Virus record (IMG/VR): IMGVR_UViG_2974724611_000001 | Span: 12,650 to 76,649 of that record | Source: Cinqassovirus ah1 | Lineage: Duplodnaviria; Heunggongvirae; Uroviricota; Caudoviricetes; Straboviridae | Length of the DNA: 64,000 nucleotides | Direction: 5' to 3' (one strand) | Part shown: positions 27,897-61,800 of the stretch, one piece after another | How positions within the stretch are numbered: the stretch's first letter is position 1 | Layout: each line of letters begins with the position of its first letter | The notes under the pieces: model-generated | What the model was told of the DNA's origin: nothing | Databases searched by the model: none | The model's input: only the letters and a program-made list of their open reading frames with translations | Position numbers and translations under genes: made by a program

Positions 27897-27921
27897 GAAA
27901 AAGGGCCCGAAGGCCCTTGTT
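27897..27921 (-). terminator. Rho-independent terminator, UUCG tetraloop
   Basis: AAGGGCC-UUCG-GGCCCUUUUU. Confidence 0.55.
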
Positions 27922-28140
27922 TTAAATTTCACTCAAATGCATACCGTGAATCGCATCAACTTTAGTGCCGTCTTGCAACACGATATCAAAATAGTTATCA
28001 GCACAAGCACAAATGATGGTTACATGTTCACCGTACACTTGCGCTTTCAACAGTTTACCGAACACTTCATCGCCGTAAGCGAATTCCCACTCAGATGAAT
28101 CCACTTGGTCCAGTTTAACGATTTTTGCTTTGGCTTGCAT
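27922..28140 (-). CDS. Hypothetical protein
   Basis: 72-aa ORF preceded by a promoter–leader cassette. Confidence 0.5.
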   Translation of the reverse strand: MQAKAKIVKLDQVDSSEWEFAYGDEVFGKLLKAQVYGEHVTIICACADNYFDIVLQDGTKVDAIHGMHLSEI

Positions 28141-28203
28141 GATATTTTCCTCAGTTGTTTGGCTTCAATGAGGATATAATAACAGGACCAAAAATCAGTG
28201 CAA
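28138..28203 (-). promoter_or_regulatory. Promoter–leader cassette (MotA-box-like TGCTTGC variant)
   Basis: Minus strand: aaagTGCTTGCA, 17 nt, TATTAT, aTCCTCATTGAAGCC, leader, GAGGAAAAtatcATG. Confidence 0.45.
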
Positions 28204-28566
28204 GCACTTTTTCAGAAAGTGATGATGTTTTTGCTTGTTGAAAGTATAGCCAAACTCAGGACGAGCCACGATGCCTTCAAACAGCGCGGGTTTCTTTGCT
28301 ACCACAACAACATCATAGCCAATCAGTTCGCGCTCGGCATTGATATTCGGGACCTTGATTTCACGTTCCACAAATTGATGAACAACAACACCATGAATAG
28401 TCTGAAACAAAGAACCAGTAACAGTTTTCTTGATCATCGCTGGGATAGTGAAAATCTCTTTGATCCGAATACCTTCGATGTGACCATTAGCGATCATTTG
28501 TTGATAGACGGCCAGTGATGCTTTCATATCTTGAATCTTGATAAACATAATATTTTCCTTAAACAA
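28195..28566 (-). CDS. Hypothetical protein
   Basis: 123-aa ORF. Confidence 0.45.
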   Translation of the reverse strand: MFKENIMFIKIQDMKASLAVYQQMIANGHIEGIRIKEIFTIPAMIKKTVTGSLFQTIHGVVVHQFVEREIKVPNINAERELIGYDVVVVAKKPALFEGIVARPEFGYTFNKQKHHHFLKKCLH

Positions 28567-28890
28567 TCAGTTGCGATAAAGTTCGGATTTGATGTCGTTC
28601 ATAACTTGATTCTTGACATCCTCGTTGATATTGAACTCGATTTCTTGAATCAGTTCAATAAATTTAGACGGGATATCTTCAAACATGATACAGTTCAGCT
28701 CAAAGCTATAGCCGTTTTCTGTCTCTTCGATTTCAAACTCGGTCTGTTGTTCAGCGTGATAGAAGAACACATGGAGACCGTGAATGCCAACAAGTTCATA
28801 GAGGTAATCACTTTCATCAGACGAAACATATGCCTCGATGTTAATACCGAAATCTTTGATACGCGCTTTCATTATCGACCTTCTTTGCAA
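28567..28890 (-). CDS. Hypothetical protein
   Basis: 107-aa acidic ORF. Confidence 0.5.
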   Translation of the reverse strand: MQRRSIMKARIKDFGINIEAYVSSDESDYLYELVGIHGLHVFFYHAEQQTEFEIEETENGYSFELNCIMFEDIPSKFIELIQEIEFNINEDVKNQVMNDIKSELYRN

Positions 28891-29255
28891 GAAATGAAAC
28901 CGTATATGCCGAGTTTAGAACCCCGGGACATTGCATCTTGCCAGTTGCTTACATGACCACGAACATACTTTGAAGCAGCTTTCCAACCGTTAGCTTTCAG
29001 AATGTCACCGGTTTCCATGTTCACAAACCAGACAACGCTACGAGTAGATTGATTTGCATAGTCAGCACGGAAGATTCTTGCATTCTTTTTGCCGAATTCA
29101 ACACCGTAAACATAACGAGAGATATTACCGTCTACCAGACGCTGGGCATGGTCTTGCTCATAACGCTTGTAGAAGTCCGGAACACTGATATTAAAATAAA
29201 CGTGATTTGAAAACTCGTTCATTTCTTTTACCATTTGCTCGATTGCTGCTTTCAT
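28872..29255 (-). CDS. Hypothetical protein
   Basis: Start set at MKAAIEQ, directly behind the cassette SD GAGGAAAACATC. Confidence 0.5.
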   Translation of the reverse strand: MKAAIEQMVKEMNEFSNHVYFNISVPDFYKRYEQDHAQRLVDGNISRYVYGVEFGKKNARIFRADYANQSTRSVVWFVNMETGDILKANGWKAASKYVRGHVSNWQDAMSRGSKLGIYGFISCKEGR

Positions 29256-29332
29256 GATGTTTTCCTCAGAGTTTGTTTTGTTTCGATGTGGACATATTAT
29301 CATGTCCACACCTAGCGTCAACTACTTTTTCA
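29253..29332 (-). promoter_or_regulatory. Early promoter–leader cassette with a hairpin spanning the -10 box
   Basis: Minus strand: aaaagtaGTTGAC (29322-29317), 17 nt, TAATAT (29299-29294), gTCCACATCGAAACAAAACAAACTCTGAGGAAAACATCATG. Palindrome GTGGACAT-gataatat-GTCCAC. Confidence 0.55.
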
Positions 29333-29334
29333 AT

Positions 29335-29907
29335 TTATTTTTCGATGCCAGTGGTATCATAATTGTGATCTAGTGTGTTGAAAAACGCTTTTGTCATTTC
29401 TCGCATTTCCTCGTTATGCAGAGGACAATCACGATTGATACGCTTGAAAATTTCACCGGCTCGATTCTCTGGACAAGTACAATGCGGCAGATTGTGTTTG
29501 TGGAAAGACGAATCGATATCAAAACCCCAGAGAGATTGCAATTCGTATTCGATATCCCGAATCCAGCCAAGATGTTCGGCAATTCGTTGTTTTTGTACTA
29601 ATTGACCAACGGTACCAACATTGTAAAGTTTCTCGTTTTTAAGTTGCTTTACATGGATATCCCGATAGTGTTGTAATTGATCGATTTTGAGAATCGTTTC
29701 ATCCGAAAGACCCCGAGAGATAGCCAGATCCAGATTGACGGTAGTATGACGCTGTTTGATAGCGAGTTCCCATTTCTCTACCATGAATGCAATAATCTTT
29801 TGCGCATTCACTCGATCTTTCGCTTCAAACGCGCCGAGAAGTTTCAGCGCGTCTTTTTGTGCAAGTTTAATGCGGAGTTTATCCGCATCAGTTATCAGTT
29901 TTTTCAT
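29335..29907 (-). CDS. Hypothetical Cys/His-rich protein
   Basis: Start at MKKLITD with a GGAG SD. C-terminal cluster HCTCPEN...RDCPLH. Confidence 0.5.
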   Translation of the reverse strand: MKKLITDADKLRIKLAQKDALKLLGAFEAKDRVNAQKIIAFMVEKWELAIKQRHTTVNLDLAISRGLSDETILKIDQLQHYRDIHVKQLKNEKLYNVGTVGQLVQKQRIAEHLGWIRDIEYELQSLWGFDIDSSFHKHNLPHCTCPENRAGEIFKRINRDCPLHNEEMREMTKAFFNTLDHNYDTTGIEK

Positions 29908-30130
29908 TGACAAACTCCATAAATTCTTTTTCGTACCCGCGATTGATAGCGAATGATACCACATCTTCACCGCCAGCTACCATATGACGACGCACGGATT
30001 CTAAGAAGTAATCAAACTCACTGAATCCATGAGAACTTTGCATTTTCAGATGCCAGTTGATCTTTTGATCCAACTCTTTCAAATTGATTGTATGATGTTT
30101 CCAGTGAAAAACTCGACTTTGATTTTTCAT
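29888..30130 (-). CDS. Hypothetical protein
   Basis: Start at MKNQSRVF with a GGAG SD. Confidence 0.45.
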   Translation of the reverse strand: MKNQSRVFHWKHHTINLKELDQKINWHLKMQSSHGFSEFDYFLESVRRHMVAGGEDVVSFAINRGYEKEFMEFVNEKTDN

Positions 30131-30184
30131 AATGACTCCGCTTTGTTTCTGGGACCAATATAACATGATCCCAGATAGAGTCAA

Positions 30185-31066
30185 TCACTTTTTACCAACA
30201 TACCAAGCGAATACGCTATGAAATGCGGAGCTTGCACTCTTACCACCGCGAGCTTCATACTCGGCAATAAACTTCACGCGATCCCGAATCCCTTCTTCCC
30301 ACAGCGCGTTAGCAAGTTTAGACGGACGGTGACGAACAATTTCACCACTCGGAGCAACATAACGCTTTTTACCGTCTCCAGTATCAACAACTTGAGCAGC
30401 TACTTTCTTACCAACAACTTTAGCAGGAACTTTGATTTCGACTTTGTTTTGCTTGACTTCTACCTTCTGATTAACAACAGTAACAGTAGGAGCAGCTTCA
30501 CCCTTACGAGTCGGCACATAAGTCAGCATGGATTTATCTTGCGGACCAACATAGTCGAACGGCTTGATTGGGTGATTACCTTTCCGAGTACGATAAACAT
30601 GACCTTTCTGGATGTTATCGTGAATTTTTTTAGTAACAACAACTTTTTGACCAGCAACACCGTAAATGTGCTGATTAACAGGAACTTCCAGATCATGGTA
30701 AGTGTTACCGCTGCCGCCCAACATTTTGTGAATGTATTTCCAACGAGCGTCGTGTCCGCTTTTGCCGCGTTGTACATAATCAACAATGTGAGCAACTTCG
30801 TGGCTTACGGTTTCGTCAAGCAGATGCCACCAAGCTTTCTCGCTCATGATCATCATGTTAACGTTGAAATTCAGTTCATACTTGCGGTTGAAGCTGTAGC
30901 CTTGCATCATTGCGCGACCAGCAGAACGAGCGCGGAGAGTGAACTTTACTGCCAAATTCTTACCAATCACGAGGTCAACACCGAACAGATCGTTGGCTTT
31001 TTTAACTTCGATTTCTACCCGGGCTTTGAGTGCTGCGATTGCTTGATCTTTCAGATTCAAAGTCAT
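30185..31066 (-). CDS. SprT-like zinc metallopeptidase domain protein
   Basis: 293 aa. HExxH in the context DETVSHEVAHIVDY; Lys-rich C-terminal half. Confidence 0.55.
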   Translation of the reverse strand: MTLNLKDQAIAALKARVEIEVKKANDLFGVDLVIGKNLAVKFTLRARSAGRAMMQGYSFNRKYELNFNVNMMIMSEKAWWHLLDETVSHEVAHIVDYVQRGKSGHDARWKYIHKMLGGSGNTYHDLEVPVNQHIYGVAGQKVVVTKKIHDNIQKGHVYRTRKGNHPIKPFDYVGPQDKSMLTYVPTRKGEAAPTVTVVNQKVEVKQNKVEIKVPAKVVGKKVAAQVVDTGDGKKRYVAPSGEIVRHRPSKLANALWEEGIRDRVKFIAEYEARGGKSASSAFHSVFAWYVGKK

Positions 31067-31145
31067 GATGTTTTCCTCAGTTGAATTCGTTGATTGGCTT
31101 CAATGAGGACATAATATCAGGTAGATCCCAAACGTCAACAACTTT
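31064..31145 (-). promoter_or_regulatory. Early promoter–leader cassette
   Basis: GTTGAC (+ strand gtcaac ~31131), then TATTAT, TCCTCATTGAAGCC, leader, GAGGAAAACATCATG. Confidence 0.45.
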
Positions 31146-31177
31146 TTGGAAATAAAAATCCGCCCGAAGGCGGATCA

Positions 31178-31486
31178 TCATTTCTTTGTTGCTAGTTTCA
31201 GCAAATGTCTGAGTTGGGCGCTATCAATGTTGGTTTTGATTTGTTCAGCCAGATCCGCTGGATTTGCATCCGGTAGCGCATCAGCATACGCTTGATAAAC
31301 ATCATCAGCACTATCAAAACCACGATATCGCTTGATCCGACTTTTTGTGATCGATTGCACCACAAATGATTCAAACTTATCACGATAGATACCACACCGA
31401 ACGATGTTTCTATCCAAGAACAAAGCGACATTCATCAGAACATAGAAGAAACAGAACGAAACAATATTTTTGATCTTGATTAACAT
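31178..31486 (-). CDS. Hypothetical membrane protein
   Basis: 102-aa ORF with one TM helix. Confidence 0.4.
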   Translation of the reverse strand: MLIKIKNIVSFCFFYVLMNVALFLDRNIVRCGIYRDKFESFVVQSITKSRIKRYRGFDSADDVYQAYADALPDANPADLAEQIKTNIDSAQLRHLLKLATKK

Positions 31487-32471: not shown

Positions 32472-32816
32472 TTAAACATTCCTTTTATATTCTCCCATAA
32501 CATCCAGATAGTTTTCGATGTTAAAAGCTGGGAGAGAGCAGCTTAGATTAGAACCACAGAAGTGATTCACCAGTTGATCGATAACATTGTCATTAAGACG
32601 GAAGTTATCAGCTTCATAAGTTTCCCAGGCATCACGTATCATTTGTTCGGTGACTGAGAAACAGAAATTGTTAACACCATACACTTTGATTTCAATCTCT
32701 TTACCGTCAAACAGAGCAATCAGATTTTGCACATTCGGGCTGGTAACCATGTTTGCGCGAGTTGCATTGTAGATACCACGAGCATTGATTTTAGCTTTTA
32801 CAGTAACAAAGTGCAT
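32472..32816 (-). CDS. Hypothetical protein
   Basis: 114-aa ORF. Confidence 0.5.
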   Translation of the reverse strand: MHFVTVKAKINARGIYNATRANMVTSPNVQNLIALFDGKEIEIKVYGVNNFCFSVTEQMIRDAWETYEADNFRLNDNVIDQLVNHFCGSNLSCSLPAFNIENYLDVMGEYKRNV

Positions 32817-32885
32817 AATGTATTCCTCATTCGTTATTTGATAGAGCCATTATCGCATGGCTCTTAGCGGTAGTCAACAACTTTT
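32814..32885 (-). promoter_or_regulatory. Early promoter–leader cassette (copy A of an exact duplicate)
   Basis: tgatagagccattatcgcatggctcttagcggtagtcaacaacttt is identical to 33190-33235. Palindrome AGAGCCAT-gcgata-ATGGCTCT. Confidence 0.5.
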
Positions 32886-33172
32886 TATTCGGCTTTACAA
32901 ATCATTTTGAGTTGCATAACCTTTTCAGAATCACCAGCACCAGACAACCAAGCGGTGTGATCCCATTGCTCAGTGATAGAAGCGTTGGTAAACATCTTAG
33001 AACGAGACAGGTCGCGCTCGATTGCTTGCAGTGTGCCAACGTAGTCGGAAGTAACAACAATCATGTTATTGCCTTCACATTTACCATCGAAGTTAACGAT
33101 GATTTGCACATTACGAACAGAGTATTTGCGAGTTGCGAACAGTGCTTTGAATTCAGCGGCTACGTTTTTCAT
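32885..33172 (-). CDS. Hypothetical protein
   Basis: 95-aa ORF. Confidence 0.5.
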   Translation of the reverse strand: MKNVAAEFKALFATRKYSVRNVQIIVNFDGKCEGNNMIVVTSDYVGTLQAIERDLSRSKMFTNASITEQWDHTAWLSGAGDSEKVMQLKMICKAE

Positions 33173-33245
33173 GATGTATTCCTCAGTTGTCTTGATTTGA
33201 TAGAGCCATTATCGCATGGCTCTTAGCGGTAGTCAACAACTTTTA
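33170..33245 (-). promoter_or_regulatory. Early promoter–leader cassette (copy B of an exact duplicate)
   Basis: Same ~46-bp sequence as 32835-32880. Confidence 0.5.
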
Positions 33246-33664: not shown

Positions 33665-33940
33665 TTATTCCTCATAGTTTTTGATTGATTTGATAATGCT
33701 TTCTATGAATTCCAGATCCGTGTCTTCGAAGATAGTTGGCTCCATGTTATCAGTAACGTCATTGTAATAATGAACAGTATAACCGAAAACTTTGGTATAA
33801 ACAACTAACATTTTCGAAACCGGCATTCTGATATAAACAGAGTTGCTAGGAAACGCTATCGATTTGTAACCATTGTATCCCAACGATTTAAAGAAAGCAA
33901 CCAGTTTTTCGCATTTTCTTTCTTTAATGAACTCAAACAT
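33665..33940 (-). CDS. Hypothetical protein
   Basis: 91-aa ORF. Confidence 0.45.
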   Translation of the reverse strand: MFEFIKERKCEKLVAFFKSLGYNGYKSIAFPSNSVYIRMPVSKMLVVYTKVFGYTVHYYNDVTDNMEPTIFEDTDLEFIESIIKSIKNYEE

Positions 33941-34007
33941 GATTGGTTCCTCTCGTATTGATTGTGGCTATAATAACAGGTATAGTCACACTCGCAAGCA
34001 CTTTCAA

Positions 34008-34238: not shown

Positions 34239-34476
34239 CTAAAAACCCCTTCTTGTCCAATACTTTACAAGCTTTACGGACGGCTTCAACGTTTTCCGAA
34301 ATGATTTCATCGTGTCCGTACACCGCAACATGACGCATCACACGGTCCATGCAGCCGGGCAGATTGTTGTTCCAAATCGCGGATACCGGATCTACCAACG
34401 GACGATCTTTCAAGAAAGTCGCCAGCATGATTTTGTTAACGTGATCTTTAGTTTCTTGCCAATAACTCATTGCCAA
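34231..34476 (-). CDS. Hypothetical protein
   Basis: 81-aa ORF preceded by a cassette. Confidence 0.45.
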   Translation of the reverse strand: MAMSYWQETKDHVNKIMLATFLKDRPLVDPVSAIWNNNLPGCMDRVMRHVAVYGHDEIISENVEAVRKACKVLDKKGFLGE

Positions 34477-34535
34477 TCTCCTTGTTTCAATGTGGATATA
34501 TTAACAGGTTGATTCCAGTTTGCAAGCACTAAAAC
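34476..34535 (-). promoter_or_regulatory. Promoter–leader cassette (TGCTTGC variant)
   Basis: Minus strand: ttagTGCTTGCaaac...TTAATATATCCACATTGAAAC...GAGATTGGCAATG. Confidence 0.4.
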
Positions 34536-34562
34536 GAAAAAAGCACCCGAAGGTGCCTTTTA
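34536..34562 (-). terminator. Rho-independent terminator, UUCG tetraloop
   Basis: GCACC-UUCG-GGUGCUUUUUUCG. Confidence 0.55.
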
Positions 34563-35705: not shown

Positions 35706-35986
35706 TACAGAACTCCAGTTCAATTAACTCGTAATCATCGGCAGTCTTACGCTTGATATCGTAATCAGACGGAGACGGATTATCAATGCCAGAGTTATAC
35801 CACTCAACTGATTTTTTGTGATGAATCACGTTTTCAAAGATACTGCGATCTGATGAAATGAACGGAACAGAACACAGAAAATCGAAATCAGCGGTTACCG
35901 AATTGCAGAACTCCGCATTTCCGTTTGCGGTAGTGGAGATACCAAGCCACATATCTTTCTTTTTTGTGACGCATTGCATAGAACAT
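35659..35986 (-). CDS. Hypothetical protein
   Basis: Start at MFYAMQCV behind the cassette SD GAGAGGAAAATATC. Confidence 0.45.
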
Positions 35987-36045
35987 GATATTTTCCTCTC
36001 TAAAAGATAGGCTCATTCTACACGAACGAGCCTAGTTGTCAATCA
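35984..36045 (-). promoter_or_regulatory. Early promoter–leader cassette (TTGACA / TAGAAT) with a hairpin over the -10 box
   Basis: Minus strand: gattTTGACAactAGGCTCgttcgtgTAGAATGAGCCTatc. Confidence 0.4.
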
Positions 36046-36405
36046 AATCAGACCAAGAATTTTCTTTTCTTCGTCACTCAGTTTTGCGAGTGCGGCAGCT
36101 TTCTTCTCGTTGTTGATTTTGATTTCGTAGTCTTCGCGCTTGCGAATGACTGTGATCCGATCTTTAACGAGGAAGCTGAATTCTTCACCGTCGATATCGA
36201 ATGTCAGAACATCTTTTGCACCAGAGTAGCAAGCGCCGTTACCACCGTACCAACCCTTTCCTTTAGATAGTTCTAAACCCAAAGACTCGCTAGTGGAGTA
36301 GCAGAACACAGCAGAGCGACGTTCGTCGGTAGATATGGTGATTTCGTATGCTTTTTCTTTTTTCATTTGTACAGTCATATTAACCTCACAGATATTCAGT
36401 TGCAC
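36043..36405 (-). CDS. Hypothetical protein
   Basis: 120-aa ORF. Confidence 0.5.
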   Translation of the reverse strand: MQLNICEVNMTVQMKKEKAYEITISTDERRSAVFCYSTSESLGLELSKGKGWYGGNGACYSGAKDVLTFDIDGEEFSFLVKDRITVIRKREDYEIKINNEKKAAALAKLSDEEKKILGLI

Positions 36406-36603: not shown

Positions 36604-36816
36604 TCACAAATGTATTCTGAATCTTTGGCGATTACTTCGCCGTTCTACTTCGAGTTTGCCGTTGGTAGCACTCATTGGGACTTCCAGCTTTTCTTTCAGA
36701 TACGCTTTAAGTTGTTCCAGTATATCTGAACTCAAACTGTTGTCAACTGATTTTTCCACAATTTTTATGCTCTTTACATTGCGTTGTTGTGTAGCCGTCA
36801 AACACAGAACGAGCAC
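36604..36816 (-). CDS. Hypothetical protein (probably shorter, GTG start near 36765)
   Basis: The track ORF overlaps the HAD gene 3' end by 74 nt. An internal GTG start would reduce the overlap to about 17 nt. Confidence 0.3.
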   Translation of the reverse strand: MLVLCLTATQQRNVKSIKIVEKSVDNSLSSDILEQLKAYLKEKLEVPMSATNGKLEVERRSNRQRFRIHL

Positions 36817-49977: not shown

Positions 49978-50064
49978 TCAATTAAGTTGATTCAGAGCAC
50001 TTGACAGGGCTTCGGCATACGCTATTGCAAATCCCATCATCATTATAAAGAATGCGACTTTCAT
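49978..50064 (-). CDS. 28-aa hydrophobic peptide with its own promoter cassette
   Basis: MKVAFFIMMMGFAIAYAEALSSALNQLN. A full cassette lies upstream at 50065-50125 (TTGACA...catatcagg; hairpin CGTGGACAT/ATGTCCACG). Confidence 0.4.
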   Translation of the reverse strand: MKVAFFIMMMGFAIAYAEALSSALNQLN

Positions 50065-50066
50065 TT

Positions 50067-50125
50067 TGTTTGTCCGATTTCGTCTTGACGTGGACATCAT
50101 ATCAGGATGTCCACGAGTGTCAATC
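50067..50125 (-). promoter_or_regulatory. Early promoter–leader cassette with a 9-bp-arm hairpin
   Basis: Minus strand: tattTGATTGACActCGTGGACATcctgatatgATGTCCACGtcaagacgaaatcggacaaacaaaATG. Confidence 0.45.
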
Positions 50126-50624
50126 AAATATCGAAAAGATTTTCTAAAGAATTTTGCTTTACTATGCCACGAGCTTCTAACAGCCAGTCTGGATATTTTC
50201 TACCCTCGCTGATATCAGTGTGATCGATTGTGTTACAATACGCAATGTTATTCAGCGCAATATCTCGGATTTCATCTGTCTGCCAATCACTGGTTAGATT
50301 GAGTTCAGCTAATAACGCTCCAATTCGAGCTATAATCGCTTCCCAGTTATCTCGCATATACTCACAAGCATAAACATCGGAAACAGCTTGGATCGCGTTG
50401 GACCGAGTTACGCCGGCTTTCTTGATCTTACGCTCGATAACTCTAACAACAAAATTACCGTCGCCAGCAGCAGGCTCAAACATGGTAACGCCGAGATTAT
50501 CCACGTCCGATACCATATCAATCATATGATCAACGATATGAATAGGAGTAAAAACTTCGTCGGTTTTCTTTTGTCGATCACGACTGATTGGACCAGTAAA
50601 CGTTCTCGCATCATCTTTTATCAT
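50124..50624 (-). CDS. N6-adenine methyltransferase C-terminal half (motif X/I module), separate ORF
   Basis: Start at MIKDD with a GGAGA SD. DRQKKTDEVFTPIHIV...MFEPAAGDGNF...VYACEYM...IAYCNT...GRKYPDWL is collinear with residues ~285-410 of the 37230-38477 methyltransferase. Confidence 0.6.
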   Translation of the reverse strand: MIKDDARTFTGPISRDRQKKTDEVFTPIHIVDHMIDMVSDVDNLGVTMFEPAAGDGNFVVRVIERKIKKAGVTRSNAIQAVSDVYACEYMRDNWEAIIARIGALLAELNLTSDWQTDEIRDIALNNIAYCNTIDHTDISEGRKYPDWLLEARGIVKQNSLENLFDI

Positions 50625-50636
50625 AATTATCTCCAA

Positions 50637-50662
50637 AGAAAAAGGGGCCGCAGCCCCTTTAT
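50637..50662 (-). terminator. Bidirectional hairpin terminator separating the two methyltransferase halves
   Basis: AAAGGGGC-UGCG-GCCCCUUUUUCUUUGGAGA. The GGAGA SD of the next ORF follows immediately. Confidence 0.5.
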
Positions 50663-50663
50663 A

Positions 50664-52301
50664 TTATCGTACCAATTCAGCAAAATCAACCGGAATTGCA
50701 TTTCTTTGTTCTTCGGTGATGCCAAAATGGTTGAACAACTTTTCATCGTCCCAAGACTGGGTGAAATCAAGCCACGGAATGGATTTCAACTCACCTCGGT
50801 GTAGATTTCCGTTCATTTTCAGCGTTGCCAGACACGAGCGAAAAAAGAGTGTTTTGGTATACGATAGGAAATTGTCTGCCTCTTCCTTGGTAGAAAATTC
50901 CCAAGATAACCAGCTATTGTTAGTCAGTCTTGAATCCGATACTACCGCATTTGTAAATCGTTTCCATAGAGTACATACGAACCATTTTCCATTTTTGTAT
51001 TCCGGTTCGTTATCTCCATTCATATACTTATGATCATCAACGCTATCCGCGAACGTGATATTATAAAATGGAAGAAGCCATTCGCCGTACATGTTTACTT
51101 GATCTATCGTTTCGGCTGTGTATTTTCCATGTTTTGCAATAACTCGAACGCGATCCAACTTCGTGAGCTTATTGATATAGGTAATTCCAACCGGAGACGA
51201 AATATCAGCAGAGAAACAATCAAATCCGATATATTCCCATGAGCAGTCATATTTGGAAACATATGTTAGAAATGCCTTGGCATCATTAGAACGACGAACT
51301 TCCTTTCTGTTTGTGATTGTGCTACACGGATGAATAGCAACAACGCGATCTGCCACTTCTAAGCCTATATTCACAAACTTGAGATCTTCCGCAAAAGGAG
51401 GATTCTGCAAGCATACATCAAATTTCATTTTTGCTCCCAGTTTATCTTTGTTTTTCATCGCATCTGTAGAAATTGCTCCAACCAACATAGAACGCATTTC
51501 TTTTGCCTTCTTATCAGAAGAAGTTGCCAGAGTAATCTTTGCTGGATTATATCCCATTTTAACTAGAGTATAAACAAACTCCACAGCTTCGACAACAAGG
51601 ACAGACGGCTGCATATACTTACAAAGATCCGCATAGGAGATCATCTTGTGTGCAGTTTCGAAGTCCATGACATAAGGCTGATTGGATTTCGCGCTATCGA
51701 CATAAGTCAAATCCTTGATCCGAACTTCGGAGTTATACCAATCGCGCAATCCGATCATTTCGATGGCATAGTGATTCATGTAAACGGGCTTTTCAATGAC
51801 GCTTACACTGGCAACCGGAGCAGGAGCGATCATGTTTTCGATAAGAAAAACGATACGCTTCATTTTTACGATGATAAAGTTGGAAACAATTTTGTTCATT
51901 TGTTCCGGACTAACATTATAGTCGAATGCGTCTTTTACCATGCTTTCAGGAACAGCTACTTCGAACCACTCGGTGCTATTCTTTTCTTTGCGGTCCACGC
52001 GAACAAAACCACAGTGTTCCATCATCAGGTGAAGTTGGTGATCGGTATTGACGGAAGAATTGGACAGTGACATTTTCCAAGCTTCCACGCAATCTTCGCT
52101 AACTGCGGTAGTCTTAGTTTGTCCTTTTACACGAAGGGAAGTATCTTCGTGTTTGGTTTCACCAACTTTGAACTTGATTTTACGCTCGGCTCGAATCATG
52201 TTCCGCACTTCGTTCGGATAGAAATATGCGTACACGTTCTTGCTTTTGTTGGTGCAGTTTTCGCCCAGGGTTTTCAGCTTAGTGATCAGTTCGTTTTTCA
52301 T
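50664..52301 (-). CDS. Methyltransferase N-terminal half (motif IV NPPF / TRD module), fused to a ~290-aa novel N-terminal domain
   Basis: Start set at MKNELITKLKTLGENC, directly behind the cassette SD GAGGAATACATCATG. Residues ~295-545 (FDVCLQNPPFAEDL...HPCSTITNRK...) align with residues 1-280 of the intact paralog. Residues 1-290 have no recognisable match. Confidence 0.6.
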   Translation of the reverse strand: MKNELITKLKTLGENCTNKSKNVYAYFYPNEVRNMIRAERKIKFKVGETKHEDTSLRVKGQTKTTAVSEDCVEAWKMSLSNSSVNTDHQLHLMMEHCGFVRVDRKEKNSTEWFEVAVPESMVKDAFDYNVSPEQMNKIVSNFIIVKMKRIVFLIENMIAPAPVASVSVIEKPVYMNHYAIEMIGLRDWYNSEVRIKDLTYVDSAKSNQPYVMDFETAHKMISYADLCKYMQPSVLVVEAVEFVYTLVKMGYNPAKITLATSSDKKAKEMRSMLVGAISTDAMKNKDKLGAKMKFDVCLQNPPFAEDLKFVNIGLEVADRVVAIHPCSTITNRKEVRRSNDAKAFLTYVSKYDCSWEYIGFDCFSADISSPVGITYINKLTKLDRVRVIAKHGKYTAETIDQVNMYGEWLLPFYNITFADSVDDHKYMNGDNEPEYKNGKWFVCTLWKRFTNAVVSDSRLTNNSWLSWEFSTKEEADNFLSYTKTLFFRSCLATLKMNGNLHRGELKSIPWLDFTQSWDDEKLFNHFGITEEQRNAIPVDFAELVR

Positions 52302-52385
52302 GATGTATTCCTCAGTGTTTTGTTTCGATGTGGAACATAATAACAGAATTGGATTACTGTGCAAGCACTTTCTGGAACTTTTTAT
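52299..52385 (-). promoter_or_regulatory. Promoter–leader cassette (TGCTTGC variant)
   Basis: Minus strand: ccagaaaGTGCTTGCACagtaatccaattctgTTATTATGTTCCACATCGAAACAAAACACTGAGGAATACATCATG. Confidence 0.45.
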
Positions 52386-52408
52386 ATAAAAATCCCGACG
52401 AAGCGGGA

Positions 52409-52630
52409 TCAGTCTTTCTTGGATGCCAACATTGCTGCCATCAGCATGTCGTGGCGTTTTTGTTCTTCTTTCTCTTTGCGTAGATTCGGCAGAATCAGTA
52501 ACAGAATGATAGAGAAAAGAGGAGTCAGAAAAATGGTGATGATTAACCAACCCAGAACAGAACGCCAGCGAGAGTTTGCCAATACCAAAGTTACGATCAG
52601 AAATACAAGCCAGCCAATTGCGATTGTCAT
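52409..52630 (-). CDS. Small membrane protein
   Basis: 73 aa with two TM helices. Confidence 0.45.
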   Translation of the reverse strand: MTIAIGWLVFLIVTLVLANSRWRSVLGWLIITIFLTPLFSIILLLILPNLRKEKEEQKRHDMLMAAMLASKKD

Positions 52631-53082
52631 TTAAACACCGTTATGATAGTTGATAACGTATTCTTTCAGCTCTTGATAAAAAGCCTGATACTCGATAGCG
52701 CGAATAATGTCCTTCGGACCAACACCCTTCAAACGTCTTATATCGCTATTGTGTCGGAGATCGCTCATTTTGATGTAGACAGAACGAATGTCGGACTTGA
52801 CTCGTTGCTTGTAAGAATCCATACTTTCGCCCTTGATCTTACTCACATTTTGAACAAGTTGAACGGCTTCTAGCTCATGCCGTTAGAGATCAAGAGATCT
52901 CGTCCACCTTCGATATCTTCAATGATATCATGAGCCAACGCTGCCTGTTTAGTAGCTTCGTCAGCACACTCCGGAAGACCCTCCATAACCGCCAAGCAGT
53001 GTTCGAAATAGGGACGTCCACCTTTGTCGTTAGTTTCCGAGAAAGCAGTTGCTACCAGTGCGTACAGTTTAGCTAAAGTCAT
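52631..53082 (-). pseudogene. Small alarmone hydrolase (RelA/SpoT-type HD-domain (p)ppGpp hydrolase) split by a -1 frameshift
   Basis: ORF 53082-52870 carries the HD half: GGRPYFEHCLAVMEG...AALAHDIIEDIEGG, then a stop. ORF 52846-52631 (reading frame open from 52882) continues ...ELEAVQLVQNVSKIK...YIKMSDLRHNSDIRRL, the KLADRLHNMRT-like motif. Confidence 0.55.
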
Positions 53083-53313
53083 GTTCCTTCTCCAGTTCGT
53101 TTAACTCTTGAGTTAACATCTTATCACGGTTTGCGTGATATTCAACTTTTTTCTTTGAATGTTCAATTTCTCGGACTAAATGTTTCCTAGTATTGCTTGA
53201 ACTCGCCGTTTACAACTTCACCCATTTGACACGCAAAACCGTACATCATATATTCCTCAGTTGATTTGAAAGTGCGATCTATAATGATCGCACCGATTTG
53301 GATTACAAGCTTT

Positions 53314-53736
53314 TTAGAACTCTGGATTCATTTTGCTGTGAGTGCCAGCGACAAGAGCAAATGTCTTGGAGTATAGCCACTGACCAGTCAACTTTTTACG
53401 CCAGAACACACGACCGCTGGAAGTCTTGATAGTTTTCAGACTATCGGAAATCTTAACGATTGTTCCACACGGGTAATAATCGCCGTTAAACGTCATGCTC
53501 ACTTCATCACCAACTTTCGGCATTTCGATTACATCAAATCTAGGGCTTGCCCATTCGCCTTTGTCGATTGCCAGCAGATTTTTACCTTCGAATTCATCAA
53601 CGATAGCTTGAGCATTCGCCAGTGACTTGAAATCCCAGCGAGAAACGATGTAGTGAGTACGATCAGCTTCGCGGGCAGCCATGGCGGCTTTGATATCGGT
53701 GTAGATTTCTTTGGTGTTCATATTGAAGTGCAGCAT
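53314..53736 (-). CDS. Hypothetical protein
   Basis: 140-aa ORF behind a cassette. Confidence 0.5.
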   Translation of the reverse strand: MLHFNMNTKEIYTDIKAAMAAREADRTHYIVSRWDFKSLANAQAIVDEFEGKNLLAIDKGEWASPRFDVIEMPKVGDEVSMTFNGDYYPCGTIVKISDSLKTIKTSSGRVFWRKKLTGQWLYSKTFALVAGTHSKMNPEF

Positions 53737-53815
53737 GATGTAATCCTCAGAAGTTGTTTTGTTTTGATGTGGCTATAGTATCAATAGCCACACCTAGCGT
53801 CAACTACTTTTTTCG
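53734..53815 (-). promoter_or_regulatory. Early promoter–leader cassette with a hairpin
   Basis: Minus strand: aaaagtaGTTGACgctagGTGTGGCTATtgatactATAGCCACATCAAAACAAAACAACTTCTGAGGATTACATCATG. Confidence 0.5.
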
Positions 53816-55012: not shown

Positions 55013-55212
55013 CTTACGTGCAGTTCAACACCAGCAACAGAATCAACACTACCTAATTTGGTATCCCAGAAGTGAGTTTTCACTTTACGTTTCGGGCGCT
55101 CCAAAAAGAAATTTAAACTGCCGTCTTTGTCTTGCGCAACGTATGACCCGCAGAAGTTTTTGCCTTCTTTAACGAGAGATTCAACAACGATTTCCATGAA
55201 TGACTTTTTCAT
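54946..55212 (-). CDS. Hypothetical protein
   Basis: 88-aa ORF behind a cassette. Confidence 0.5.
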   Translation of the reverse strand: MKKSFMEIVVESLVKEGKNFCGSYVAQDKDGSLNFFLERPKRKVKTHFWDTKLGSVDSVAGVELHVSWHKNVISLDSYKQYIAYRFGL

Positions 55213-55272
55213 AATAAACCTCGGCGTTTCGATGTGGCTATATTATCAGGTCCATATCCGGTGTCAACAAAA
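55210..55272 (-). promoter_or_regulatory. Early promoter–leader cassette, immediately after the NAMPT terminator
   Basis: Minus strand: tttttGTTGACaccggatatggacctgaTAATATAGCCACATCGAAACGCCGAGGTTTATTATG. Confidence 0.45.
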
Positions 55273-55300
55273 AAGCCACCCGAAGGTGGCTTTTATTTTT
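55270..55300 (-). terminator. Bidirectional rho-independent terminator, UUCG tetraloop
   Basis: GCCACC-UUCG-GGUGGC, with U/A runs on both sides. Confidence 0.6.
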
Positions 55301-56865: not shown

Positions 56866-57543
56866 TCAGAATACCAGTGCGATACCAGCAACAGCAGAGT
56901 TATCATAGCCAACACCGGTAGTTACAGTGTGGCGCAGTTTAACATAGGGCTGGAACAGCTCGCCAGTCAGAGTCATAGCGATTTCGTGTTCATTGGAAGT
57001 CGGAAGACCCAGAGAGAAATCGGTACGTTCATGTTGGGTTTTACGGGTAAAGTTATATCCTACAGTCATTTCGGGGTGAATTTCATAACTCACACCAGCT
57101 TTGATCTTGCTATAGTCTTGACCTTCGTTCATGAAGCTATAACCAGCGCCAGCGTAGGAATACAGTTTGGCGAACGGCATGTATTCAACGATGCCCTGGA
57201 AGTAAGTTTCATGATCGGTATTCACATCACCTTCATAGATGCCGTATTCAGCACTAGGAACAAAGGTAAAATCATCAGAGATCTGAATTGTCTTGCCCAG
57301 AGTACCGGCAGTGTGCTTGGTAGTGTCGTGTTTGACTTCCAGGAAGTAGGAGTCAGGCAGAGCAACGGAAGCACCGTATTCAGAAACATCGGTAGAGACG
57401 TTACGCTCTACATAGATCTTTTCAAATTGAACTTGAGCGGCAGCTTCGGTCAGATCGGAAGCTTGTGCTTGGGTACAGCCAAAAGATGCAGCAGCTACGG
57501 CCAAGCCAATGATTACACTGTGAATAAAGTTTTTGGACATCAA
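56866..57543 (-). CDS. Outer-membrane beta-barrel protein (porin/OmpW/KdgM-like)
   Basis: Signal peptide MSKNFIHSVIIGLAVAAASFGCTQAQA. Alternating amphipathic beta-strands. C-terminal aromatic residue (..GIALVF). Confidence 0.55.
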   Translation of the reverse strand: MMSKNFIHSVIIGLAVAAASFGCTQAQASDLTEAAAQVQFEKIYVERNVSTDVSEYGASVALPDSYFLEVKHDTTKHTAGTLGKTIQISDDFTFVPSAEYGIYEGDVNTDHETYFQGIVEYMPFAKLYSYAGAGYSFMNEGQDYSKIKAGVSYEIHPEMTVGYNFTRKTQHERTDFSLGLPTSNEHEIAMTLTGELFQPYVKLRHTVTTGVGYDNSAVAGIALVF

Positions 57544-57554
57544 GGTATTACCTC

Positions 57555-57773
57555 TTAGTTGATTGAGAATAAAGCAACAACAAGTATCAACATTATTATT
57601 AGGATCTTGTTGTCACCATGTTTACTTAACGTTTCCAGTATACGTCGCTCGATTGCAACTGTCAACAACTTTTTCGCGATTGCTAACGGTATAACAAGAA
57701 ACGTTAAGACTAGGAACTTATGTTGATTATACATTAGCTCCAGAAGATTGCAAACACTATCGTAAAAATCCAT
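57555..57773 (-). CDS. Small membrane protein
   Basis: 72 aa with two TM helices. Confidence 0.4.
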   Translation of the reverse strand: MDFYDSVCNLLELMYNQHKFLVLTFLVIPLAIAKKLLTVAIERRILETLSKHGDNKILIIMLILVVALFSIN

Positions 57774-57822: not shown

Positions 57823-58056
57823 TTACAGTAACTCCGTCATATAACGGCTATACGAGATTGTATAGTCAGAGCCAAATCCGGTGATATCTTCCCAGTCTTG
57901 ACCCGGGTCCACTTTTACAATAAACCCGTAACCGAGAAATGGAATTTCATGATTGGTTCCTAAACCGACAACGGTACATTTAAACTTTTGAACGTTGCCG
58001 AATATACCGGAGACGAGTTCAACTTCAACCCGATCTCCATTTTCAAACGGATACAT
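57823..58056 (-). CDS. Hypothetical protein
   Basis: ORF trimmed to MYPFENGDRV. Confidence 0.4.
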   Translation of the reverse strand: MYPFENGDRVEVELVSGIFGNVQKFKCTVVGLGTNHEIPFLGYGFIVKVDPGQDWEDITGFGSDYTISYSRYMTELL

Positions 58057-58282
58057 CGAATAGTCCTTGTTGTTTAGCTTTTTCAAAAAGCGGGTGATTG
58101 TCCGATATCGAGATATCAAGAGCTTTTATGATAAGACTAATGTCTTCCAATGTCAACTCTTTTTTCGTGATTTTATGGGTTTTCGGGATGCGAATAGATC
58201 CAGTCAGACTATTGTCACCACGATGATACCAGTCTTCTCGTTGCTCGATCAGTTCGTCTTGATGGAGTGCGTCCTGACTCAT
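58043..58282 (-). CDS. Hypothetical protein
   Basis: 79 aa. 4-nt overlap (ATGA) with the upstream nucleotidyltransferase gene. Confidence 0.5.
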   Translation of the reverse strand: MSQDALHQDELIEQREDWYHRGDNSLTGSIRIPKTHKITKKELTLEDISLIIKALDISISDNHPLFEKAKQQGLFDVSV

Positions 58283-60287: not shown

Positions 60288-60627
60288 AGATCAGTTTATG
60301 AACGTCGTTGGATTTCTCTGCCTGTTGCAGGATATCGTAAAATTCAGGAATAGTCAATACTCTGGTTTGTTTTCCGTCTGAACTAACGAAATCATATCCG
60401 TGAGTGCTATCAGTCGGCACTTTTGGAATTCCGTAGTGGTCATAAAGGCGAATAGTGATTCCTTTCTTTTGGAAAGCATCAACAATTTCATTGAAATGTT
60501 GTTTGATCCAAATACGTCGATTGGTTGCTTTTTCGCTACGACGCTTTTTGATCAAGTCTGAGATCCAGATAGCAAAAGCGATAATTGCAACAAAAATAAT
60601 TGTGATCATCGCGGCAACATAAGCCAT
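60250..60627 (-). CDS. Membrane protein
   Basis: 125 aa with an N-terminal TM helix (AAMITIIFVAIIAFAIWI). Confidence 0.5.
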   Translation of the reverse strand: MAYVAAMITIIFVAIIAFAIWISDLIKKRRSEKATNRRIWIKQHFNEIVDAFQKKGITIRLYDHYGIPKVPTDSTHGYDFVSSDGKQTRVLTIPEFYDILQQAEKSNDVHKLIFGKYLYRQFNVK

Positions 60628-60631
60628 TTTA

Positions 60632-60961
60632 TTACCTCACAGTGAATAGATCAGACGTAACCGGTTTATCGCTCAAAGGAACGGTGTGTTCTTCGAACTT
60701 TTCTCCGTATTCACATTTTCGCCAGAACAGCATTACCTCAGACGGATATAGATCTCGGCTGATTCTTTCTCCGTTGGTAAACACGAAACGGACTTTGTGT
60801 ACCTTTTTGAGCTGTACTCCATGTTTCATAAGATTGTGTTGGATGATATCCCAACTCTTTCTGATACGACGATAGGAGACAAACTCAACGATAGCACACA
60901 TTAACAATATTGCGGCAAGAATAACTGCCGCAACGATTCCCATGATATCGATTGTAGTCAT
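60632..60961 (-). CDS. Membrane protein
   Basis: 109 aa with an N-terminal TM helix (IVAAVILAAILLMCAIV). Confidence 0.5.
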   Translation of the reverse strand: MTTIDIMGIVAAVILAAILLMCAIVEFVSYRRIRKSWDIIQHNLMKHGVQLKKVHKVRFVFTNGERISRDLYPSEVMLFWRKCEYGEKFEEHTVPLSDKPVTSDLFTVR

Positions 60962-61314
60962 TATACCTCTAGTTTGTAACAGTCAATAAACGCCTGTGCA
61001 TTCTTATTAACAAAGTCCACGATTTTGTCACAAGCCAACTCACGGGACTTTTGTTTCCGCAGAACCGGAAACTTAACACCAGATTTCCACTTACAATCAC
61101 CACAAAGAGATTCGAACTTGGTTTCACCGGCGTGAAGCATGAAATGCGCCCAACGATTGTTGAAAAACTCAAGATCAGAACAACCGATCTTAGCACCAAC
61201 CATGATCACTTCCATGATTTCTTCGCCCAGAGATTTACGTGATCTAACTCGAACATACTCTACCAGACGCGGGTCAATCTTGGATTTTACTTGTTCTACC
61301 AGAGCTTGATTCAT
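60961..61314 (-). CDS. Hypothetical protein
   Basis: Start at MNQALVEQ behind a cassette. Confidence 0.5.
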   Translation of the reverse strand: MNQALVEQVKSKIDPRLVEYVRVRSRKSLGEEIMEVIMVGAKIGCSDLEFFNNRWAHFMLHAGETKFESLCGDCKWKSGVKFPVLRKQKSRELACDKIVDFVNKNAQAFIDCYKLEV

Positions 61315-61385
61315 GATGTTTTCCTCAGAGTGATTGCTTTGTTTCAATGAGGCCATTATTACATGGCCTCCGATTTATGTCAAAC
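61312..61385 (-). promoter_or_regulatory. Early promoter–leader cassette with a hairpin
   Basis: Minus strand: taagtTTGACAtaaatcGGAGGCCATgtaataATGGCCTCATTGAAACAAAGCAATCACTCTGAGGAAAACATCATG. Confidence 0.5.
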
Positions 61386-61688
61386 TTATTTTTGAACTTT
61401 TTTCTGTTGCTTCTGGATTTCTTTCCAGACTTGCTTTTGCAGCTTTTCGCGGCAGCCGTTCTTGTTCATCAGATAATCGTTGGTGATCTTCTGTTGAGCG
61501 TGGAACCAGTGGGCAACAGCTTCACTAAGAATAACACGTTGTTCGGCTTCTGGGAGTTTCTTGAACTTCTCAATACCGAAGTATTTGATACGAGATACAA
61601 CACCGTTTGTCATACGCTCCAGAGCATCACGATTCACATTAAACTGCTTTGCGATTGCGTCGAATTGTGCTTGAATTGCCATGTCCAT
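61386..61688 (-). CDS. Hypothetical protein
   Basis: 100 aa. Start at MDMAIQ behind a cassette. Confidence 0.5.
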   Translation of the reverse strand: MDMAIQAQFDAIAKQFNVNRDALERMTNGVVSRIKYFGIEKFKKLPEAEQRVILSEAVAHWFHAQQKITNDYLMNKNGCREKLQKQVWKEIQKQQKKVQK

Positions 61689-61771
61689 GATGTTTTCCTC
61701 AGTGTTTTGTTTTGCGACGAGTCGCGTTGTTTCGATGTGGACATCATAACAGGCCGATCCTTGCTGTCAAC
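61686..61771 (-). promoter_or_regulatory. Early promoter–leader cassette
   Basis: GTTGAC (61771-61766), 17 nt, TATGAT (61748-61743), GTCCACATCGAAAC...GCGACgagTCGC...GAGGAAAACATCATG. Confidence 0.5.
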
Positions 61772-61800
61772 AAAAAAAGGCACCCGAAGGTGCCTTTTAT
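61772..61800 (-). terminator. Rho-independent terminator, UUCG tetraloop
   Basis: AAAAGGCACC-UUCG-GGUGCCUUUUUUUG. Confidence 0.6.

Follow-up and report, generated by a model that had tools for sequence, protein, structure and literature searches.

Why should so many small genes in the accessory region of an Aeromonas phage each be preceded by the same promoter and leader, and why does a hairpin so often lie across the −10 box of that promoter? The question arises in a 64,000-nt window that is identical (100%) to positions 12650-76649 of the record of Aeromonas phage Ah1 (MG250483/NC_055733), a T4-type myovirus of the genus Cinqassovirus near Aeh1. All annotated genes of the window lie on the minus strand, and between 27 and 62 kb they form a series of small "hypothetical protein" genes typical of a hyperplastic region. 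An earlier reading of these letters made without database searches (the sequence-only reading) had described, between 27,900 and 61,775, a minus-strand family of at least 17 promoter-leader-Shine-Dalgarno cassettes in which hairpin arms covary. We find that compensatory substitutions preserve the hairpin when orthologous promoters are compared, and the comparison with other phages supports placing the Ah1 cassettes in an already described type, the promoter-early stem-loop (PeSL), now in a new phage group.

The family is real and larger than proposed, with about 25 curated minus-strand promoter-leader cassettes in 27,900-61,775 according to intergenic reading, a regular-expression scan and a weight matrix. 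Each cassette consists, in order, of an A-tract, a −35 box (xTTGAC or CTTGCA), a 17-18 nt spacer, the −10 box, a CCACATCGAAAC-type leader, a GAGGA Shine-Dalgarno sequence and the ATG. The consensus drawn from the intergenic reading and the regular-expression scan is aaaaagt(a/t/g)-(G/A/C/T)TTGAC, 17-18 nt, a TAnnAT-like −10 and (G/A)(T/G)CCACATCGAAAC…CTGAGGAAAACATC-ATG. An extended −10 (TGn) is frequent in the spacers, and the aaaaagt(a/t/g) tract stands 5' of the −35 box in most copies, its place being taken by a terminator T-run in three. A mechanical repeat search recovered three separate modules, namely the promoter core (8 copies), the leader/Shine-Dalgarno/ATG block CATGATGTTTTCCTCAG (11 copies, which place a Shine-Dalgarno sequence and start codon at the 3' end of the cassette) and the terminator AAAAAGCCACCCGAAGGTGGCTTTT (4 copies). 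The genes downstream are nearly all small "hypothetical proteins", and hairpin copies cluster at 29-62 kb of the window. A position weight matrix built from the −35 and −10 blocks only, so that spacer and downstream sequence were never used, was run on the whole assembled Ah1 genome (221 kb), as were all genome-wide counts; it found 69 minus-strand and 2 plus-strand sites, the spacers measuring 16-18 nt, and 21 of the 69 lie inside 27,900-61,775. Because the matrix penalises copies in which a terminator T-run replaces the A-tract, those copies were added to reach the curated total of 25.

Ten of these cassettes carry a hairpin of 8-13 bp. Its 5' arm is part of the spacer, and its 3' arm begins at position 4-6 of the −10 box and reaches about +1; an eleventh cassette carries an imperfect one. 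As a measure of the stem we took the longest exact Watson-Crick pairing between two stretches, the spacer extended by the first 2 nt of the −10 box and the sequence reaching from position 3 of that box to +16. Ten of the 69 Ah1 promoters have a stem of ≥7 bp, whereas 20,000 permutations of partners average 1.17 such promoters and never exceed 7, and 1.5% of mismatched-partner pairs (one promoter's spacer with another's downstream sequence) reach that length. Inside 27,900-61,775 the count is 8 of 21 (permutation mean 1.0, maximum 6). The homologous regions of the relatives give 6 of 23 promoters in Aeh1 (mean 0.71, maximum 5), 6 of 24 in avDM12-TAAL (mean 0.76, maximum 5) and 5 of 19 in PX29 (mean 0.52, maximum 4). 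Folded as RNA, eight hairpin cassettes have minimum free energies of −13.1 to −17.8 kcal/mol (z −2.2 to −4.4) and four hairpin-less cassettes −5.6 to −6.8 kcal/mol (z −1.5 to +1.05). The complementarity of spacer and downstream box that had been claimed for at least nine copies thus lies above the permutations. In the list of arms given with that claim, the pair written GTGTGGCT/AGCCACAC is really AGCCACAT, with G·T as its outermost pair; hairpins beyond that list lie at 36008-36034, 40608-40635 and 30148-30175, with the imperfect one at 33964-33989 and two out of range at 24730-24751 and 1429-1450.

Ah1 and four relatives together supply 40 distinct hairpins; in 37 of these the 3' arm ends +6 to +10 past the last −10 base, and 35 have a loop of 4-8 nt. 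The first half of the −10 box sits in the loop, and the dyad has its centre at the 5' edge of the −10. With the start site placed about 7 nt past the −10, a convention taken from Aeh1 promoter logos (PMC1524935), the stem ends at about +1 of the predicted start and the hairpin lies entirely in untranslated sequence. Since the stem ends there, the cassette's own transcript would lack the hairpin, and only RNA reading through from upstream would carry it.

The evidence that the stem itself is maintained comes from orthologous cassettes, which were found via the downstream coding sequence in six phages (Ah1, Aeh1, PX29, avDM12-TAAL, phiAS5 and phiWae14) and are labelled in this comparison with the window coordinate where the −10 box starts. 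The arms of cassette 53780 are GGCTAT/ATAGCC in Ah1, Aeh1 and PX29, GGACAT/ATGTCC in avDM12 and GGCCGT/ATGGCC in phiAS5 and phiWae14, and those of cassette 48407 are GTGGCT/AGCCAC, with ATGGTTCATTA/TAATGAACCAT in PX29 and GATGTGGCTC/GAGCCACATC in phiAS5. The orthologues of cassette 30162, 5' of a sprT-like gene, have four to five unrelated arm pairs that are each complementary, and those of cassette 36020 have four different pairs; AGAGCCAT/ATGGCTCT and AGAGACAT/ATGTCTCT are separated by a single compensated base-pair difference. Pairs were counted on structure-blind MAFFT alignments of these related sequences, with 500 shuffles and slid partners as controls. In alignment A1, 100% of 96 cells are paired and 5 of 8 pairs are compensatory (both sides changed) in 22 cells, a result reached by 0 of 500 shuffles, with slid partners at 33-54%. 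Alignment A4, which took the place of A2 (dropped, two stem registers being mixed in it), has 97.5% of cells paired and 2 compensatory pairs in 8 cells (0 of 500 shuffles; slid partners 20-49%), and alignment A3 has 90% paired and 3 compensatory pairs (4 of 500 shuffles; slid partners 29-42%). At least 12 distinct arm pairs are seen, all complementary, and the non-arm spacer bases next to them drift freely in the same alignments.

With relatives aligned, complementarity therefore exceeds both shuffles and slid partners, and the compensatory covariation that the sequence-only reading had claimed is borne out. A stem kept by compensatory substitutions points to selection on structure, not sequence. 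This adds comparative evidence of stem maintenance in six phages to the published PeSL descriptions, in which we found no such analysis. A protein-anchored search of IMG/VR for further orthologous cassettes, using the sprT-like protein and gp108, returned only Aeh1, PX29 and phiAS5.

How closely do these cassettes match known systems? A PeSL as described by Arbiol et al. 2010 combines an AT-rich tract with a σ70 promoter, a stem-loop and a Shine-Dalgarno/ATG, and the commonest places of the stem-loop are over the −10 and between it and the −35 (PMC2839356); promoter activity was shown in that study, and one phi1 stem-loop reduced read-through into lacZ as much as rrnB T1 did (PMC2839356). The Ah1 cassettes share with the PeSLs of phi1 and RB49 the AT-rich tract, the near-consensus σ70 promoter, the stem-loop and the Shine-Dalgarno/ATG, as well as a location upstream of ORFans, in plastic regions, at indel boundaries and flanking gene 43. 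PeSL-like sequences around gene 43 of Aeh1 were mentioned by Arbiol et al. 2010 (PMC2839356), and Ah1 has hairpin promoters on both sides of its DNA polymerase gene (1429-1450 and 4319-4345). The same scan applied to RB49 yields ATGGGAGTA-gtaaaa-TACTCCCAT and GGGAGTAT-gctata-ATACTCCC, with the 5' arm in the spacer and the 3' arm ending at +6 to +8. The differences are that Ah1 is a Cinqassovirus on Aeromonas; that its arms are not G-runs and C-runs but vary around (A/G)T(G/A)(G/T)CCAC; that its leader CCACATCGAAAC…GAGGAAAACATC is strongly conserved; and that the length of the intergenic gap divides its cassettes clearly into three groups, those with a −10 hairpin, those with a terminator upstream and those without either.

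Comeau et al. 2014 reported PeSLs in nt-1/KVP40 and PST/T4 together with TGCTT-containing "PmSLs" that have a TATTAT −10 (PMC4122927). Ah1 shares with these the broad "schizo-T-even" lineage, a TGCTT variant with a TATTAT −10, and a stem-loop terminator just 5' of the promoter, found in Ah1 at the −10 boxes 61748, 55245, 34503, 31116 and 52342; the stem-loops of nt-1/KVP40 and PST/T4 are described upstream of the promoter, whereas in Ah1 the structure crosses the −10 in about 40% of cassettes. Nolan et al. 2006 predicted early promoters in Aeh1, and a term search of that paper finds neither "inverted repeat" nor "stem-loop". The −10-spanning sub-class common in the original description, the equal geometry in RB49, the covarying arms and the location at indel edges (see below) all support the PeSL identity suggested by the sequence-only reading, and extend the PeSL architecture, with its stem-loop across the −10, to Aeh1-like Aeromonas phages. 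Its further claim of unusually high density is not supported, as phi1 and RB49 have 52 and 51 PeSLs in 164 kb, and the 221 kb of Ah1 hold 69 promoter sites, with a stem-loop in only some of them.

A pattern scan of IMG/VR with TTGAC-N17-TANNAT-NNCCACATC returned mostly unrelated promoters with stems of ≤6 bp in nearly all, which serves as an informal negative control, and further hairpin cassettes in the contigs L025 (four), L109, L118, L089 and L048. The four in L025 (IMGVR_UViG_3300020682_000004, an unclassified 60-kb viral contig) lie within 2.8 kb at 10775-13559 and have −10 hairpins GTGGCTAT/ATAGCCAC of 9-10 bp and a leader that differs from that of Ah1; PHROG matches gave no classification of this contig. 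Those in L089 and L048 are longer palindromes over the −10. The motif TAnnAT-nnCCACATC around the start site is common to many unrelated viral promoters. Rfam at gathering threshold finds no family in the Ah1 window.

Which cassettes carry the hairpin, and which do not, can be read from the curated set, to which three sites outside 27,900-61,775 are added.

28138-28212, minus strand: cassette without hairpin; −35 CTTGCA 28199-28204, −10 TATTAT 28176-28181, ATG 28140; the upstream open reading frame (ORF) stops just within the spacer
29253-29330, minus strand: cassette with −10-spanning hairpin 29285-29312 (GGTGTGGACATG/TATGTCCACATC); GTTGAC, TAATAT, ATG 29255; −17.7 kcal/mol, z −4.4
30128-30193, minus strand: cassette 5' of the sprT-like gene; hairpin 30148-30175 (TCTGGGATCA/TGGTCCCAGA, one T·G)
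31064-31176, minus strand: cassette, −10 31111-31116; no −10 hairpin (z +0.6), preceded by an intrinsic-terminator hairpin 31157-31176
32814-32886, minus strand: cassette with hairpin 32843-32864 (AGAGCCAT/ATGGCTCT), −10 GATAAT
33170-33245, minus strand: cassette with hairpin 33202-33223 (AGAGCCAT/ATGGCTCT)
33938-34006, minus strand: cassette, CTTGCG, TATTAT; imperfect hairpin 33964-33989 (GTGACTAT/ATAGCCAC, one A·C)
34468-34561, minus strand: cassette, CTTGCA, TAATAT; no −10 hairpin, terminator hairpin 34538-34561 upstream
35984-36051, minus strand: cassette with hairpin 36008-36034 (TAGGCTCGTTC/GAATGAGCCTA) followed by TCTTTT, terminator-like; z −4.3
36673-36755, minus strand: promoter-like site, less certain as a cassette; GTTGAC, 17 nt, TATACT; no hairpin
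40588-40658, minus strand: cassette, −35 GTTTAC; hairpin 40608-40635 (AAACGGTGATA/TATCACTGTTT) with T-rich tail
42535-42604, minus strand: cassette, TGCTTGAC, −10 TAATAT; no −10 hairpin; upstream ORF extends into the spacer
43744-43812, minus strand: cassette, GTTGAC, 18 nt, GATAAT; neither hairpin nor terminator (z +1.05)
45330-45400, minus strand: cassette, ATTGAC, 18 nt, TACCAT; no −10 hairpin; promoter overlapped by upstream ORF
47414-47484, minus strand: cassette, GTTGAC, 17 nt, TAATAT, ATCCACATCGAAAC; no −10 hairpin, an imperfect hairpin upstream
48364-48438, minus strand: cassette with hairpin 48393-48423 (GTGTGGCTTGTTA/TAATGAGCCACAT)
50062-50132, minus strand: cassette with hairpin 50089-50115 (CGTGGACATC/GATGTCCACG)
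52299-52409, minus strand: cassette, CTTGCA, TATTAT; no −10 hairpin; upstream terminator ATCCCG-CTTCGT-CGGGAT-TTTT at ~52388-52409
53080-53154, minus strand: promoter-like site, GTTGAA, 17 nt, TAAGAT; no hairpin
53734-53812, minus strand: cassette with hairpin 53766-53794 (GGTGTGGCTAT/ATAGCCACATC)
55210-55294, minus strand: cassette, GTTGAC, 17 nt, TAATAT; no strong −10 hairpin; terminator AAAAGCCACC-TTCG-GGTGGCTTTT (55271-55294) adjoins the −35
57538-57674, minus strand: promoter with long leader, GTTGAC, 18 nt, TATACT; no hairpin
58054-58165, minus strand: promoter-like site, GTTGAC, 18 nt, TATCAT, ~127 nt within the upstream ORF; no hairpin
61312-61392, minus strand: cassette with hairpin 61349-61370 (GAGGCCAT/ATGGCCTC), −10 AATAAT; likely true ATG 61314; z −4.25
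61686-61798, minus strand: cassette, GTTGAC, 17 nt, TATGAT; no −10 hairpin; terminator AAAAGGCACC-TTCG-GGTGCCTTTT (61775-61798) adjoins the −35
24704-24770, minus strand, out of range: cassette with −10-spanning hairpin 24730-24751 (AGCCAGTC/GACTGGCT) and T-rich tail
1429-1450, minus strand, out of range: hairpin GGGGCTAT/ATAGCCCT over GATAAT, 5' of uvsX and 3' of DNA polymerase
4319-4345, minus strand, out of range: hairpin GGCGCTCTTGA/TCAAGAGCGC over the −35, 5' of DNA polymerase; the PeSL sub-class with a stem-loop overlapping the −35

Three probable errors in the RefSeq annotation came to light in this list, and correcting them would remove what are probably false or misplaced gene starts from the Ah1 record. 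The start of gp124 at ATG 61356 falls within the hairpin 3' arm and −10 box, and the ATG preceded by a Shine-Dalgarno sequence is 61314; the 105-nt ORF gp059 (31077-31181) spans a promoter cassette plus its terminator; and the start at 35979 is probably 35986.

The presence of the hairpin goes with the position of the upstream stop codon. In the eight hairpin cassettes tabulated for this feature the upstream stop ends 5-22 nt before the −35 end, the other three are alike by intergenic reading, and the stop is often the TGA within TGATTGAC. The four cassettes scored for both structures (61748, 52342, 31116 and 19895) have a terminator and no −10 hairpin, and where the annotation is readable their stops lie 37-49 nt upstream. 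Upstream terminator hairpins number 5-6 in the window, with a GC stem and T-run at 61775-61798, 55271-55294, 34538-34561 and 31157-31176. Cassettes in which the upstream ORF enters the spacer have neither structure. We propose as a rule that the distance to the upstream stop codon decides between three architectures: a stop 5-22 nt before the −35 end would go with an 8-13 bp hairpin made from the spacer and the last −10 bases and discriminator; an intergenic gap of more than about 35 nt would go with a canonical GC-stem/TTCG-loop/T-run terminator abutting the −35; and an upstream ORF entering the promoter would go with neither. This placement rule makes the idea of an attenuator or insulator directly testable.

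What, then, does the hairpin do? We consider it probable that the cassettes are PeSL-type early-gene modules and that the target of the hairpin is read-through RNA, which it would attenuate or stabilise at the 3' end. The cassettes would drive small accessory genes right after infection through the host RNA polymerase, with the A-rich tract 5' of the −35 box as an UP-like element. The hairpin would form in RNA read through from upstream promoters and, as an attenuator and/or a 3'-end-protecting stem-loop, would insulate each gene unit, and the conserved promoter and leader/Shine-Dalgarno blocks may offer short homologies for gene gain, loss and swap. A parallel exists in the repetitive extragenic palindromic (REP) elements of E. 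coli operons, which are intercistronic hairpins able to protect upstream mRNA from 3' exonucleases. The Ah1 stem-loops resemble such stabilisers in lying between co-transcribed genes and in having, for the most part, no U-tract, and differ from them in that the hairpin is built into the promoter and ends at the predicted start site.

Several observations weigh against this interpretation. The promoters' activity, their start sites and any RNA 3' ends are predicted from sequence. Both hairpin and terminator are absent from eight of the 25 cassettes, which shows that a structure is not obligatory. The mutual exclusion of the two structures is only marginally significant: across five genomes that are not independent, hairpin and terminator occur together in 2 of 47 hairpin promoters vs 24 of 152 others (odds ratio 0.24, p=0.047). 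At least 4 T are found in the 9 nt past the stem in 7 of 40 hairpins (17.5%) vs 21 of 147 hairpin-less promoters at the same place (14%). Identical arm pairs stand at non-orthologous sites, the avDM12 orthologue of 53734-53812 having the arms of Ah1 29253-29330, and since arm pairs recur in this way some of the compensation may be whole-cassette conversion from a paralogue. Finally, the stems are almost all perfect palindromes, with mismatches (G·T 9 vs A·C 3) that are few and non-independent, so the data do not separate RNA from single-stranded DNA.

The main rivals are recombination at the DNA level and neutral maintenance of the palindrome. In the former, the inverted repeat would act in DNA, as a hairpin or cruciform that signals recombination or is a hotspot for it (a structure-specific nuclease such as endonuclease VII, which Ah1 encodes, might target it) and that mobilises the cassettes as PeSL mini-circles; we give this a small but real chance. 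The palindromes are mostly perfect and both DNA strands are foldable, and in RB49 the crossover of a mini-circle was mapped to the loop within the stem-loop, a stem-loop-binding recombination protein being speculated upon (PMC2839356). The cassettes are, moreover, enriched at indel edges. Such edges were taken from length-changing gaps in colinear BLAST chains of the window vs Aeh1, avDM12-TAAL and PX29, and 22 of 42 distinct edges, not all of them independent, lie ≤20 nt from a cassette, compared with 3.6 for random positions (maximum 12 in 20,000) and with 28% of all gene boundaries. The coincidence of cassettes with gene-insertion boundaries in related genomes, which the sequence-only reading had put forward for checking, is thus found.

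The individual exchanges show where the breaks fall. A 2.16-kb segment at 50138-52298 (a methyltransferase and gp104) is replaced in Aeh1, its exact limits being the ATG of one cassette and the −35 edge of the next. All three relatives carry a gene of 181-191 nt between the Shine-Dalgarno sequence and the ATG at 34471-34476. In avDM12-TAAL two near-identical copies of the cassette with −10 47453 (cassette 47414-47484) surround an extra ORF not in Ah1, and cassette 61360 of Ah1 and avDM12 has its leader fused to a gene before which Aeh1 and PX29 carry an extra gene. Breakpoints fall at the boundary of A-tract and −35, in the CCACATCGAAAC box and at the Shine-Dalgarno-ATG junction, that is, at the cassette edges and not at the hairpin, and hairpin-less cassettes are equally at breakpoints (34471-34476, 52298, 55224-55230 and 47523). 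Homology-driven exchange at these conserved blocks consequently fits better than a hairpin-specific cut. It also counts against a cruciform that stems of 8-13 bp with loops of 4-8 nt form cruciforms poorly.

Two further arrangements in the region bear on exchange. The cassettes at 32814-32886 and 33170-33245 are direct repeats 359 nt apart with 93% identity over 60 nt; those in 32814-33245 flank gp063, an arrangement predicted to give a PeSL "mini-circle" by recombination. At 53181-53270 a leader/Shine-Dalgarno/ATG remnant of the CATCATATATTCCTCAG family stands with a short truncated ORF, where Aeh1 and avDM12-TAAL carry 1,004 extra nt including a UV-damage endonuclease gene; this gene is lost in Ah1.

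A more active role for the hairpin, selected beyond passive insulation, seems improbable: as a DNA or RNA structure it might couple the end of the upstream transcript to promoter firing, or be recognised by a structure-specific phage factor that excises and inserts cassettes. If true, the hairpin would be an element of a gene-shuffling system that, given the copies in RB49 and L025, might extend beyond this phage group.

It is equally improbable that the hairpins in general are intrinsic (rho-independent) terminators embedded in the promoter. Three hairpins of the window are terminator-like, with T-rich tails (36008-36034, 40608-40635 and 24730-24751), one of them called so by the scan, and the phi1 stem-loop noted above terminated on a par with rrnB T1 (PMC2839356). 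The T-rich tail is, however, no commoner in hairpins than in the hairpin-less background (17.5% vs 14%), which argues that most −10 hairpins are not canonical intrinsic terminators, and the common class of hairpin is followed by ATCGAAAC or ATCAAGAC.

The second main rival holds that the complementarity is functionless and is kept by hairpin-templated mutation (quasi-palindrome correction) together with conversion between paralogues. That cassettes clearly exchange, that GTGGACAT occurs in 29253-29330, in 50062-50132 and in the avDM12 orthologue of 53734-53812, and that AGAGACAT occurs at two loci are all in its favour. We nonetheless judge it quite unlikely, as the arm pairs, at least 12 of them different, are all complementary, several are one compensated base pair apart (for example AGAGCCAT to AGAGACAT), the adjacent non-arm spacer diverges freely, the position relative to stop codon and start site is constant, and the same design is found in the distant RB49.

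A separate proposal concerned the class of cassettes in which GTTGAC is replaced. The sequence-only reading had seen in this class a resemblance to the T4 MotA box, with early-like and middle-like versions of one cassette side by side; as a rival explanation, the TGCTTGCA-type cassettes would be middle promoters dependent on MotA/AsiA. There is agreement in the TGCTT core, in the TATTAT −10 of five of the seven copies, as in the nt-1 "PmSL" (PMC4122927), and in the presence of AsiA in Ah1 (PF09010, E=1.4e-20). The box in T4 is (a/t)3TGCTTtA and in Ah1 aaaGTGCTTGC(A/G), so that the TGCTT core is shared and the last two positions differ. The T4 MotA box must lie 12±1 bp from the −10, with TGCTT thus about 14 nt away (PMC2988021), whereas in all 7 Ah1 copies the distance from TGCTT to the −10 is exactly 20 nt (18 nt after TGCTTGC), which puts the box about 6 bp further upstream. 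This spacing is the geometry of a σ70 −35 box. Two of the seven copies read TGCTTGAC, intermediates in the same register as aaaGTGATTGAC, which marks the class as −35 variants, aaaGTG + CTTG(A/C)(C/A). No MotA domain was found in the five ORFs of the syntenic asiA-gene 52 interval and none is annotated genome-wide, a whole-proteome hidden Markov model scan not having been made; neither motA nor middle promoters are reported for Aeh1 by Nolan et al. 2006, and the literature describes this phage group as lacking motA. When the spacing was to be compared with that of the nt-1/KVP40 PmSL, no TGCTT-type site was found in KVP40 at 20-70 kb.

The Ah1 class thus has in common with the MotA middle promoters of T4 the TGCTT core, a good −10 and a phage AsiA, and differs from them in a box that is about 6 bp too far upstream, in that motA was not found, and in a motif continuous with σ70 −35 variants. 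MotA dependence is accordingly very doubtful, and these promoters should not bear the MotA middle-promoter label. We treat the TGCTT cassettes as σ70 −35 variants, which may differ in strength or in sensitivity to AsiA. The list of sites given for this class also needs amendment, as the one at ~42590 reads CTTGAC, not CTTGCA, and a further copy with CTTGCG lies at 33993-33998.

The weakest explanation, an operator for a dimeric repressor covering the −10, has the dyad symmetry centred on the −10 5' edge to recommend it and was rejected as having next to no chance, because the arms differ among cassettes and orthologues yet stay complementary, a variability that favours pairing over a shared protein-recognition sequence.

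Elsewhere in the window a 98-nt inverted repeat, 92% complementary, is formed by 11130-11227 (plus strand) and 27221-27318 (minus strand) with 15,993 nt between the arms, and brackets gp028-gp050 (gp55, nrd genes, endonuclease VII). It belongs to a dispersed intergenic family of ~75-120 nt with the core AAGACAAAATAAAATCTCTTATAGATCTTTAATGAGAATCTATTTTGTCTTCCTTAAGGTAATCAATGAGTTAGCT, all copies of which are unannotated: Ah1 has 8 (on both strands), Aeh1 8, avDM12-TAAL 9, phiAS5 and phiWae14 6, and PX29 and AsFcp 2-3. The core forms an 18-bp imperfect hairpin; no covariation was seen in it, because it is nearly invariant, and it has no Rfam match.

In the leader of gene 55 (late sigma factor), at 13510-13545 on the minus strand, GTATACTTC pairs with GAAGTATAC, and the 3' arm overlaps the Shine-Dalgarno sequence GAGGGAAG; this hairpin could be a candidate for translational control.

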